Virus record (IMG/VR): IMGVR_UViG_2657245664_000013
Coordinates: 1 to 28,520 of that record
Direction: 5' to 3' (one strand)
Source: a virus
Lineage: Duplodnaviria; Heunggongvirae; Uroviricota; Caudoviricetes
DNA: 28,520 nt
Under the pieces are notes generated by a model that was not told where the DNA came from, made no database searches, and saw only the letters and a list, made by a program, of their open reading frames with translations. Of the stretch, positions 542-3,075 are shown one piece after another; position 1 is the stretch's first letter; the number at the start of each line of letters is the position of its first letter. The translations under genes and the position numbers were made by a program.

Positions 542-1579
542 TTAACGCTTATCCGCCACCAGTTTGAGCGCGTGTTCCAGCACATTAATGTCTGCACCCG
601 CTTTATGGGCATTTTCACTTAAATAACGCCGCCACTGCCGCGCGCCAGGAATACCCTGGAACAAGCCCAACATATGCCGGGTAATATGGCCGAGATACGT
701 CCCCTGGCTGAGTTCACGCTCAATGTACGGATACATGGCGCGCACTACCGCCACCGGATCGGCATCGGTATCCGAGGAACCAAAGATCTCCCGGTCTACC
801 GCCGCCAGAATACCCGGATTCTGATACGCCTCGCGCCCGACCATCACGCCATCCATATGTTGCAGGTGTGCTTTGGCCTCTTCCAGCGACTTGATACCAC
901 CGTTAATCGACATTGTCAGATGCGGAAAGTCACGCTTCAGTTGATACACACGCGGATAATCGAGCGGCGGGATTTCACGGTTTTCTTTCGGGCTTAACCC
1001 CGAAAGCCAGGCTTTACGTGCGTGGATGATGAACATCTCACACTCGCCTTTGCCGGAAACGGTATTGATGAAATCGCAGAGAAATTCATAGCTGTCCTGG
1101 TCGTCGATGCCAATACGCGTTTTCACCGTCACCGGAATCGACACCACATCGCGCATCGCTTTCACGCAGTCGGCAACCAGCTGCGCATTACCCATCAGAC
1201 ACGCACCAAACATGCCGTTCTGCACCCGGTCAGACGGGCAGCCGACATTCAGGTTGATCTCATCATATCCGCGCGCTTCTGCCAGCTTTGCACACTGCGC
1301 CAGCGCCGCCGGATCGCTACCGCCCAGTTGCAACGCTACCGGATGTTCTTCTTCACTGTACGCCAGATAATCACCTTTACCGTGAATAATCGCCCCTGTG
1401 GTCACCATTTCGGTATACAGCAACGTATTGCGGGAAAGCAGACGCAAGAAATAGCGGCAATGTCTGTCCGTCCAGTCGAGCATAGGAGCAATGCTAAACC
1501 GAGAACTCCAGTAAGCGCCAGTTTTTTCAGGCATCACGCTGGTTTGATTAGTTTTCTGTGTTTCAGGATTATCGTGCAT
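542..1579 (-). CDS. dusA: tRNA-dihydrouridine synthase A
   Basis: 345-aa ORF with Dus-family TIM-barrel signature ([47 protein letters not shown]). ATG at 1577-1579. The true start may be the internal Met at 1534 (MPEKT). The 5' end abuts the prophage integrase region. Confidence 0.92.
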
Positions 1580-1611
1580 TTTTGAACATTTCAGGCTATT
1601 TTTCTCGCGTT

Positions 1612-1647
1612 AGGTTCCCGCACAGGTTCCCACGTTTTCTGGGAACC
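1612..1647. promoter_or_regulatory. Three copies of a GGTTCCC motif (two direct, one inverted) in the dusA-int divergent intergenic region; candidate operator or recombinase-binding sites
   Basis: AGGTTCCC at 1612-1619 and 1624-1631; inverted copy TGGGAACC at 1640-1647, giving the palindrome GGTTCCCA-N7-TGGGAACC. Sits between the int RBS (ACGAGG, 1655-1660) and the dusA start. Confidence 0.5.
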
Positions 1648-1667
1648 CGAAATAACGAGGTCGTGTA

Positions 1668-2765
1668 ATGGCGTACTATAACATAGAGAAACGACTAAAA
1701 TCCGATGGCACACCACGCTATCGCTGTAATGTGATTATCAAAGAAAAAGGTGTTATCACTTACAGGGAAAGCAAAACATTCCCTAAACATGCTCATGCCA
1801 AAACATGGGGAACACAGAAAGTGATGGAATTAGATCTATATGGCATTCCATCATCAAATGCAGTTGACGGACTTACAGTCCGTGACTTACTACACAAATA
1901 TTTAAATGACCCAAATGCCGGAGGTAAAGCAGGCCGTACTAAAAGATATGTGCTGGAACTGCTTATGGATAGTGACATCTCCGCGATCAAACTATCTGAA
2001 CTGACAGAAAATGACGTAATTGAACATTGCAGGCTAAGAAACAACGCTGGTGCAGGTCCAGCAACAGTCAGCCACGATGTTAGTTATCTTGGCAGTGTTC
2101 TGGATGCGGCCAAACCTGTATACGGAATTAATTACACATCAAACCCGGCGAAAAGCGCTCGCCCATATCTACTTAAACTTGGTTTGATTGGTAAATCAAA
2201 CCGTCGTAATCGTAGACCAGCATCTGATGAACTGGACATGCTCATTGAAGGCCTTCAACAACGATCTACTCATAAATGCTCAAAAATTCCGTTCGTTGAT
2301 ATCCTCAAATTTTCTGTGTGGTCCTGTATGCGGATCGGAGAAGTATGCCGGTTACGATGGGAAGATCTCGACCAGGAACAAAAATCTATACTCGTAAGAG
2401 ACAGGAAAGATCCACGCAAAAAGGAAGGCAACCACATGAAAGTAGCCTTGCTTGGGGAAGCCTGGGATATCGTCCAACGACAGCCAAAAAAATCGGAATT
2501 CATTTTTCCATATAACAGCACTTCTGTTACTGCAGGATTTCAGAGGGTAAGAAGCAAATTAGGTATTAAAGATCTGCGATACCATGATTTGCGTAGAGAA
2601 GGAGCAAGTCGCTTATTTGAGGCTGGTTTTAGTATTGAGGAAGTCGCTCAGGTTACAGGGCATCGTTCATTAAACGTGCTATGGCAGGTATATACCGAAC
2701 TGTATCCGAAATCTTTACATAATCGTTTTGAAGAGCTCCAAAGGAGCAGAAATAAGACCTCTTGA
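1668..2765 (+). CDS. int: Tyrosine site-specific integrase (DusA-associated integrase family)
   Basis: 365-aa ORF with a C-terminal tyrosine-recombinase catalytic region (MRIGEVCRLRWEDLD ... HDLRREGASRL ... HRSLNVLWQVYTELY). Divergent from and adjacent to dusA, the known target of this integrase family. Confidence 0.92.
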   Translation: MAYYNIEKRLKSDGTPRYRCNVIIKEKGVITYRESKTFPKHAHAKTWGTQKVMELDLYGIPSSNAVDGLTVRDLLHKYLNDPNAGGKAGRTKRYVLELLMDSDISAIKLSELTENDVIEHCRLRNNAGAGPATVSHDVSYLGSVLDAAKPVYGINYTSNPAKSARPYLLKLGLIGKSNRRNRRPASDELDMLIEGLQQRSTHKCSKIPFVDILKFSVWSCMRIGEVCRLRWEDLDQEQKSILVRDRKDPRKKEGNHMKVALLGEAWDIVQRQPKKSEFIFPYNSTSVTAGFQRVRSKLGIKDLRYHDLRREGASRLFEAGFSIEEVAQVTGHRSLNVLWQVYTELYPKSLHNRFEELQRSRNKTS

Positions 2766-2826: not shown

Positions 2827-3075
2827 ATGCGTATTGAGATCTGCATAGCCAAAGAAAAAATGACTAAAATGCCAAACGGTGCTGTGGATGCGTTAAAGGA
2901 AGAATTAACCCGACGCATCAGTAAACGTTATGACGATGTAGAGGTGATCGTAAAAGCCACCAGCAACGATGGGCTTTCTGTTACACGCACCGCAGATAAA
3001 GATTCTGCAAAAACATTTGTTCAGGAGACTCTGAAAGATACCTGGGAGTCTGCTGACGAGTGGTTTGTTCACTAA
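2827..3075 (+). CDS. dinI: DinI-family protein (SOS-inducible RecA modulator), prophage-encoded
   Basis: 82 aa. Shares the DinI signature with E. coli DinI as recalled (MRIE..IAK....P.GA.DAL..EL.RRI ... LSV ... QET..TWESAD.WFV). SD AGAGGG lies 6 nt upstream of the ATG. Confidence 0.88.

Follow-up and report, generated by a model that had tools for sequence, protein, structure and literature searches.

Between the host gene dusA and the divergent integrase gene int, the DNA studied here holds the heptamer GGTTCCC three times within a spacer of 88 bp. The question raised by this locus is what these repeats are for, and which protein reads them. The window, that is, the whole stretch of DNA that was analysed, is 28,520 nucleotides long (IMG/VR virus record IMGVR_UViG_2657245664_000013). 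A word search on both strands placed the copies at 1613-1619 and 1625-1631 on the plus strand, and at 1641-1647 on the minus strand. All three lie inside the spacer 1580-1667. On its left, the minus-strand start codon of dusA reads CAT at 1577-1579, and on its right int begins with the ATG at 1668. The two direct copies belong to a slightly longer direct repeat, AGGTTCCC, found at 1612 and 1624 with a period of 12 bp, and an inverted repeat of 8 bp without mismatch pairs the second copy with the third, GGTTCCCA (1625-1632) facing TGGGAACC (1640-1647) across a gap of 7 nt. In the inverted copy, which reads GGGTTCCC, the 8-mer has lost its leading A. The original prediction had reported two direct copies and an inverted one, forming an N7 palindrome in the 88-bp spacer, and its positions were confirmed. 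The features of the locus to which we refer below are the following.

542-1579, minus strand: dusA, a hybrid gene (Pfam Dus, E=7.8e-105) whose host part runs up to the crossover
1476-1483, no strand: core, or crossover, TCGAGCAT, common to attL, attR, attB and attP
1484-1579, minus strand: replacement dusA 5′ end supplied by the phage, part of the P′ arm, with the core on one side and the arm sites on the other
1597-1602, plus strand: TATTTT box, candidate −10 of the int promoter, invariant in 32 spacers
1612-1620, plus strand: predicted arm-type site P′1, AGGTTCCCG, at +137 from the core start
1624-1632, plus strand: predicted arm-type site P′2, AGGTTCCCA, at +149
1640-1648, minus strand: predicted arm-type site P′3, inverted, GGGTTCCCA on the minus strand, at +165
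1657-1660, plus strand: GAGG, 7 nt ahead of the int ATG, read from the sequence as the likely ribosome-binding site
1668-2765, plus strand: int, tyrosine integrase of the dusA-specific family (Pfam Phage_integrase, E=1.1e-20)
1668-1841, plus strand: N-terminal domain of Int (residues 1-58), proposed reader of the motif from AlphaFold models and co-variation with the motif

Over the whole window, GGTTCCC was observed 6 times on the two strands, against 3.2 expected from shuffles. Any 28-kb window holds a given 7-mer a few times, and the simplest explanation of the repeats would be the chance clustering of a short word. Half of the copies were nevertheless packed into 35 bp, the other 3 being elsewhere in the window, and with 3.2 expected overall we took the cluster to be real. 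A second heptamer, TTTCAGG, also occurs three times nearby, at 1525-1531 and 1561-1567 in the dusA-homologous coding part and at 1589-1595 in the spacer found only in the phage. Its CAGG recurs in the arm motif, and the occurrence is probably coincidental.

The core was placed by comparing the window (attL), the empty site of E. coli K-12 (attB), the far prophage end in strain N1286 (attR) and the attP of phage mEp460. Window and K-12 are identical up to position 1483, about 80% identical over 1484-1583, and unrelated past 1583. As the crossover falls at the octamer 1476-1483 in the four-way comparison, the DNA from 1484 rightward is of phage origin. The 8-bp crossover TCGAGCAT covers Met-Leu-Asp codons of DusA, and codons 1-32 of dusA are supplied by the prophage; the two N-termini differ at 10 of these 32 residues. 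The far junction is outside the window, and was seen in the complete genome NZ_CP178401.1 (strain N1286), which carries the same prophage, of ~45 kb and 99.7% identical over the first 3 kb. There, the original dusA 5′ end survives as a truncated pseudogene at the far end of the prophage, at a distance of ~45 kb, together with the core TCGAGCAT. A PrtN-family gene lies near that far end, also outside the window. A divergent int adjoining dusA, a replaced 5′ end, the old 5′ end at the other junction with imperfect direct repeats at both ends, and an RdfN of the PrtN family are hallmarks of dusA-specific integrative elements, and all of them were found. Insertion into the dusA 5′ end is a known behaviour of dusA-specific integrases (PMC4482086; PMC8409611). 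The family is common: int had 1535 homologues at E<=1e-20, and this int adjoins dusA in 734 of 5426 complete E. coli genomes.

Several observations were made on the junctions of related loci. The first gene inside the far prophage end of N1286, beside attR, encodes a Panacea-domain protein (L003, 13791-14363). Phage mEp460 has different small ORFs at this place, so that cargo next to the far arm seems to vary between elements. In the attP of phage Lys8385Vzw (L085, 1301-1316), the 8-bp core is duplicated in tandem (TCGAGCATTCGAGCAT), which is not so in mEp460; this could be an assembly artefact or a real crossover duplication. E. coli FDAARGOS_1254 (L095, 3470-3540; also H26-H29) is free of the prophage, and its native dusA 5′ end is a different one, whose divergence begins at the crossover region (core TCAAGCAT), with zur directly adjacent and dusA annotated ~14 codons shorter. 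Such a 5′ end could be the scar of an old excision or deletion. For the E. coli genomes whose similarity to the window ends at 1492 (H25-H29), a second integrase type had been considered. None was present in H25, the one inspected; this lineage has a different native dusA 5′ end with zur adjacent.

The original prediction had asked for a search near the other att end, and a tandem pair was indeed found on the far arm: in the N1286 prophage, AGGTTCCCA and AGGCTCCCA lie 42 bp phage-ward of the core, with a period of 11 bp and in the same orientation as the direct copies of the near arm. Across this ~45-kb prophage, the 9-mer AGGTTCCCA had 7 matches with at most 1 mismatch, and 5 of the 7 are the att-arm sites. 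Phages mEp460 and Lys8385Vzw, whose Int is identical or near-identical and whose attP is uninterrupted, gave the full order in contiguous DNA: pair, core, dusA 5′ piece, trio, int. We then compared 12 attP sites, 11 taken from phage records and one rebuilt from both ends of the N1286 prophage. In all 12, the motif proper to the lineage occupied the two arms, and its positions hardly varied (around −61 and −50, around +137 and +149, with or without an inverted copy around +165, and the int ATG around +192). The arm motif is distinct from the core TCGAGCAT, and is repeated inside attP. In the reconstructed attP segments (~500 bp), 5 sites were present, with 1 mismatch allowed, against ~0.8 expected (P<=0.003 by shuffling); this P<=0.003 held in 11 of the 12 attP sites. 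The far-arm pair could be read in elements of E. coli, Yersinia (YeP3), Klebsiella (Kp4884-1), Shewanella (M16-3), Pseudoalteromonas (ACA2), Salinivibrio (SMHB1), Burkholderia (BcepIL02), Ralstonia (GP4) and Pseudomonas (E220), and in a Rhizobium phage. Every element whose whole attP was readable had its own motif paired on the far arm. In two phages, an extra inverted copy of the motif occurs inside int, which we infer to be a coding coincidence with conserved Trp-Gly codons.

To follow the layout in relatives, 80 genomic loci at 53-99% Int identity and 12 phage records down to ~35% were collected. Among these ~90 relatives (35-100% Int identity), the layout persists while each lineage has a motif of its own. 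A motif of 9-10 bp is repeated directly a little upstream of the int ATG in nearly all of them, the two copies being 11-12 bp apart. A direct pair (at least 8 of 9 matches, 10-13 bp spacing) was present in 66 of 79 int-upstream regions, against 57 of 1580 shuffles. The motifs seen were GGTTCCC, GCACCCC, GTACACC, GGACACC, GGATCCC, GTATCCC, GTGCCCC, GTCTCCC, GTCACCC, TTGCTAC and GTACGAC; copies agree within each element and differ between lineages. The suggestion that the motif should recur in other dusA-integrated elements was thus borne out for the repeat layout, which is family-wide, and not for the literal GGTTCCC, which is kept in close relatives only. In 32 non-redundant elements of Enterobacterales, the length of the dusA-int spacer is kept, a TATTTT box stands ~10 nt before the first site in 32 out of 32 spacers, and the alignment of these spacers also retains a GGAG/GAGG block. 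Many elements of Vibrionaceae, Shewanella and Colwellia are without the inverted third site. Instead, these elements (for example the marine loci L059, L067, L070, L072, L080 and L082; also L088 and L090) share a conserved box, GGTAGGAC or GAGTAGGAC, just before the int ATG, part of which may be a ribosome-binding site. With 3 copies in 35 bp, a layout recurring at fixed positions in ~90 independent elements, and shuffle tests on both the int-upstream regions and the attP sites, chance clustering is refuted, and we give it practically no weight.

A second explanation, also raised in the original prediction, is that the repeats form the operator of a phage repressor or other regulator acting on the divergent int and dusA promoters, with no relation to recombination. 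The palindrome GGTTCCCA-N7-TGGGAACC between divergent genes does look operator-like, and the inverted copy is confined to dusA-adjacent elements. Against this, the immunity region of the complete prophage contains no cluster of the motif, the motif pair recurs on the far arm where there is no divergent promoter pair, and the layout tracks int across phage types: the same arm layout accompanies int in lambdoid and in P2-like phages of very different gene content. We regard a repressor operator as very unlikely, and this part of the original prediction was abandoned. Another option that it had listed, integrase arm-type sites, is the one favoured by the far-arm copies and by the layout conserved in relatives. 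In our best reading, the GGTTCCC trio probably represents arm-type sites of Int, on the P′ arm of attL.

The changes of motif between lineages gave a clue to the reader. Two genomes hold two elements with different motifs, GTACACC against GCACCCC in both cases: Xenorhabdus hominickii (L024 and L036) and the metagenome-assembled genome Fux382_bin38 (L009 and L025). Since a single genome can hold two elements with different motifs, the reader is not a host factor and must be encoded by the element. The differing motifs may keep co-resident recombination modules from interfering. Two other pairs (L018 and L034, L035 and L039) consist of two family integrases in one genome, both with GCACCCC-type motifs.

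The structure of Int itself points to a candidate. Ahead of the core-binding domain, AlphaFold models confidently predict a small N-terminal domain of three antiparallel strands (residues 2-10, 16-26 and 29-38) and a helix (41-58), with pLDDT of ~86-93. Three strands followed by a helix is the topology of the arm-binding domains of the lambda and Tn916 integrases. The full-length Int model superposes on full-length lambda Int chains over 358-371 aligned columns, compared to ~295 for a lambda construct lacking the arm domain. Homology searches with the domain gave no significant match. Foldseek with the isolated N-terminal domain did not retrieve the lambda and Tn916 arm-binding domains, its best match (E=0.07) being to dsRNA-binding folds, and a profile search of PDB sequences returned noise only. 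The Pfam arm-domain models gave no match above threshold on the N-terminal domains of close and distant relatives. Below threshold, weak Arm-DNA-bind_4 matches were obtained in 3 of 20 N-terminal domains (best E=0.012), and DUF1391 matches in those of distant relatives.

Co-variation singles out the same domain. Motif distance correlated with distance over Int residues 1-58 (r=0.62, a value that ignores phylogeny), and did so with the rest of Int controlled for (partial Mantel r=0.64, permutation p<=0.0005, likewise uncorrected for phylogeny). The corresponding values for the rest of Int, again uncorrected, were r=0.26 and partial r=−0.31, so that this part contributes nothing further. Among all alignment columns, the two most tightly tied to motif class are residue 23, in strand 2 (1.81 of 2.04 bits), and residue 30, in strand 3 (1.62 of 1.72 bits). 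Isoleucine or leucine at 23 with isoleucine at 30 goes with GGTTCCC, glycine with tyrosine goes with GCACCCC, glycine with histidine with GTACACC, and serine with arginine with GGACACC. Residues 23 and 30 and the four central bases of the site may form a simple recognition code.

The excision factor RdfN, a recombination directionality factor (RDF) of the PrtN family, is another element-encoded protein that could read the repeats in place of Int, and the original prediction had indeed mentioned an excisionase operator. According to PMC7498355, RDF sites are typically direct repeats one helical turn apart, a description that the 11-12 bp phasing of our repeats fits, and RdfN is required to excise dusA elements (PMC8409611). 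Such sites usually occupy a single arm, the one bent for excision. A homologue of rdfN was found in most complete elements examined, often beside the far arm (7 of the 10 phage loci scanned; the other 3 are partial, or too distant for the three-seed profile), and this makes RdfN a possible reader. What does not fit is that the motif is present to either side of the core, one copy being inverted, that its changes track the N-terminal domain of Int specifically, that this extra domain would have no other obvious role, and that no other repeat present on both arms would be left to serve Int. Of the excisionase proposal, the helical phasing thus stands, while the two arms, the inverted copy and the co-variation speak against it; we consider it unlikely.

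With Int preferred as the reader, the inverted third site has to be accounted for. Of the 80 related loci, 55 lie directly downstream of an intact dusA and 25 do not, 6 of these 25 being impossible to judge because of a short flank or a truncated int. Among loci of the Enterobacterales type, an inverted copy with at least 7 of 8 matches was present in 16 of 24 dusA-adjacent loci and in 0 of 16 others (Fisher p=1e-5, which ignores phylogeny). With at least 6 of 8 matches, the counts were 21 of 24 and 1 of 16 (p=3e-7 by the same test, equally uncorrected for phylogeny). The non-dusA loci of this comparison come from at least five separate lineages. Relatives at other targets keep the direct pair without the inverted third copy. 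These results hint at a role of the third site in the element once it sits in dusA, and less in recombination itself; many marine dusA-adjacent lineages, however, are without it. As to the non-dusA relatives themselves (L029, L034, L035, L036, L039 and L040, at ~2400-2500 in each; also L030, L041, L060, L069 and L081), several keep a vestigial dusA start (GTGCAT, translated as MHEN and then stops), and they appear to be lineages that switched target site.

The inverted pair could also fold into a hairpin, of RNA or DNA, within the int leader and work for instance as an attenuator or a stabiliser. A stem of 8 bp with a 7-nt loop is predicted, and in one relative (L004) copies 2 and 3 carry matching changes, GGTCCCC and GGGGACC. 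The folding energy was nevertheless no better than that of shuffles (z=0.05). Among the relatives scored, the inverted copy resembled copy 1 better than the adjacent copy 2 in the larger number of cases, and about one third had no inverted copy at all. A hairpin would moreover leave the far-arm pair unexplained. We hold it for highly improbable.

The place of the sites suggests that arm binding by Int may have consequences for transcription. Transcription of int leads out of the arm, and 20 nt separate the last site from the ATG of int, so that its promoter or leader would have to overlap the sites. On the other side of the first site, the dusA start codon stands 33 nt away, so that a dusA promoter supplied by the element must overlap the sites or lie beyond them. 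A Vibrio dusA element has been shown to supply the dusA promoter, as well as a new N-terminus (PMC8409611). A scan of 1450-1750 for sigma-70 promoters and terminators yielded no consensus promoter and no terminator, and no IHF consensus was found between core and trio with at most 1 mismatch. As neither an IHF nor a sigma-70 consensus was matched, it is from geometry that the regulatory reading is drawn, and on this ground autoregulation by Int and an effect on dusA are plausible. The original prediction had gone further, with prophage control of dusA expression. In its favour are the promoter and N-terminus supplied by related elements (PMC8409611) and the link of the inverted copy with dusA, and against it the lack of a predicted promoter in the region scanned. 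A stronger version, in which the trio is more than a recombination scaffold and its inverted third site would let Int, perhaps with RdfN, act as a bidirectional switch coupling int autoregulation to DusA expression, is tentative, and we find it, like the recognition code, rather doubtful.

Just past int, two perfect CTGT-N8-ACAG boxes, the LexA-box pattern, stand in tandem at 2768-2783 and 2796-2811, between the int stop codon and a DinI-like gene (2827-3075). In the window, this pattern was observed 4 times, with 0.3 expected. The arrangement suggests that the prophage dinI may be under SOS control.

In phage lambda, Int reads arm-type sites P1 and P2 on the P arm, and P′1 to P′3 on the P′ arm. 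The dusA elements resemble it in having a short motif unlike the core, copied twice on one side and three times on the other, and in the motif being read, as we infer here, by a small N-terminal domain of a heterobivalent tyrosine integrase whose full-length model superposes on lambda Int. They differ in the motif, of unrelated sequence, in the inverted orientation of the third near-arm copy, and in an N-terminal domain with no above-threshold Pfam arm-binding match. Unlike in lambda, transcription of int starts from within the arm and leaves the att site behind. The near-arm sites are 130-170 bp from the core, since this arm also carries the replacement 5′ end of the host gene and its promoter.

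For the direction of int, a parallel is offered by the IntS/TorI module of KplE1 (and HK620), in which int also faces away from the junction and has its promoter or leader inside attL, among arm-type sites. The KplE1 integrase gene has a promoter overlapped by arm sites of attL, and is negatively autoregulated by IntS and the RDF (PMC2951348). KplE1 targets a tRNA gene and has an arm site over a mapped −10 box, whereas here the location of the promoter is deduced from geometry, and a host protein-coding gene, on the other strand, has to be expressed from this stretch as well.

With the dusA-associated integrases already described (Farrugia et al. 2015, PMC4482086; Durand et al. 2021, PMC8409611), our element shares the insertion in the dusA 5′ end, the replacement 5′ end and promoter, the divergent int, a PrtN-type RDF across attP from it, and a semi-conserved core repeat. 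The word 'arm' is absent from Farrugia et al. 2015 (PMC4482086), and the accessible sections of Durand et al. 2021 (PMC8409611) describe core repeats of ~21 bp, the replacement promoter and N-terminus, and RdfN, with no arm sites. A literature search combining dusA with arm sites returned nothing relevant. As no arm sites were found in this literature, the arm-site layout seems to be undescribed, and so does the co-variation. Arm-type sites are in principle an ordinary feature; what is useful here is the full attP of a very common family, with a natural series of specificities.

We propose the following scheme. The element would integrate by a crossover at TCGAGCAT, inside the dusA 5′ end, using an attP whose far arm has a tandem motif pair (−61, −50) and whose near arm has the trio (+137 and +149 direct, +165 inverted). 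We take Int to be heterobivalent, its small N-terminal domain holding the arm sites and its core-binding and catalytic domains acting at the core. This bridging would assemble the folded complex needed for integration and, with RdfN, for excision, the direction in which RdfN would drive the reaction. RdfN does drive excision in a Vibrio dusA element (PMC8409611). The near arm would also carry the replacement dusA 5′ end, an outward dusA promoter, and the promoter and leader of int. Int bound there would be expected to damp its own transcription, as in KplE1, and dusA transcription may be affected as well. The sequences show that the repeats exist, that they occupy the two arms with a conserved geometry, and that they co-vary with the N-terminal domain of Int; from this we propose that Int would bind them, that recombination would require them and that transcription may be affected.

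Relatives of this element are spread across Proteobacteria, as prophages, including Shiga-toxin phages, and as mobilisable islands. Knowledge of the whole attP, including the constant positions of its five predicted arm sites, gives the minimal att site expected to function, which matters for engineering, for the prediction of prophage borders and for studies of excision. The lineage motifs, together with two variable residues of the N-terminal domain, constitute a natural data set on how arm domains read DNA. The recognition code, if true, could separate co-resident dusA elements, and would be usable to reprogram arm specificity. The expected overlap of the sites with the dusA promoter supplied by the phage is a possible route by which the prophage tunes a host tRNA-modification gene, and if the switch were true, host tRNA dihydrouridylation would report the recombination state of the prophage.
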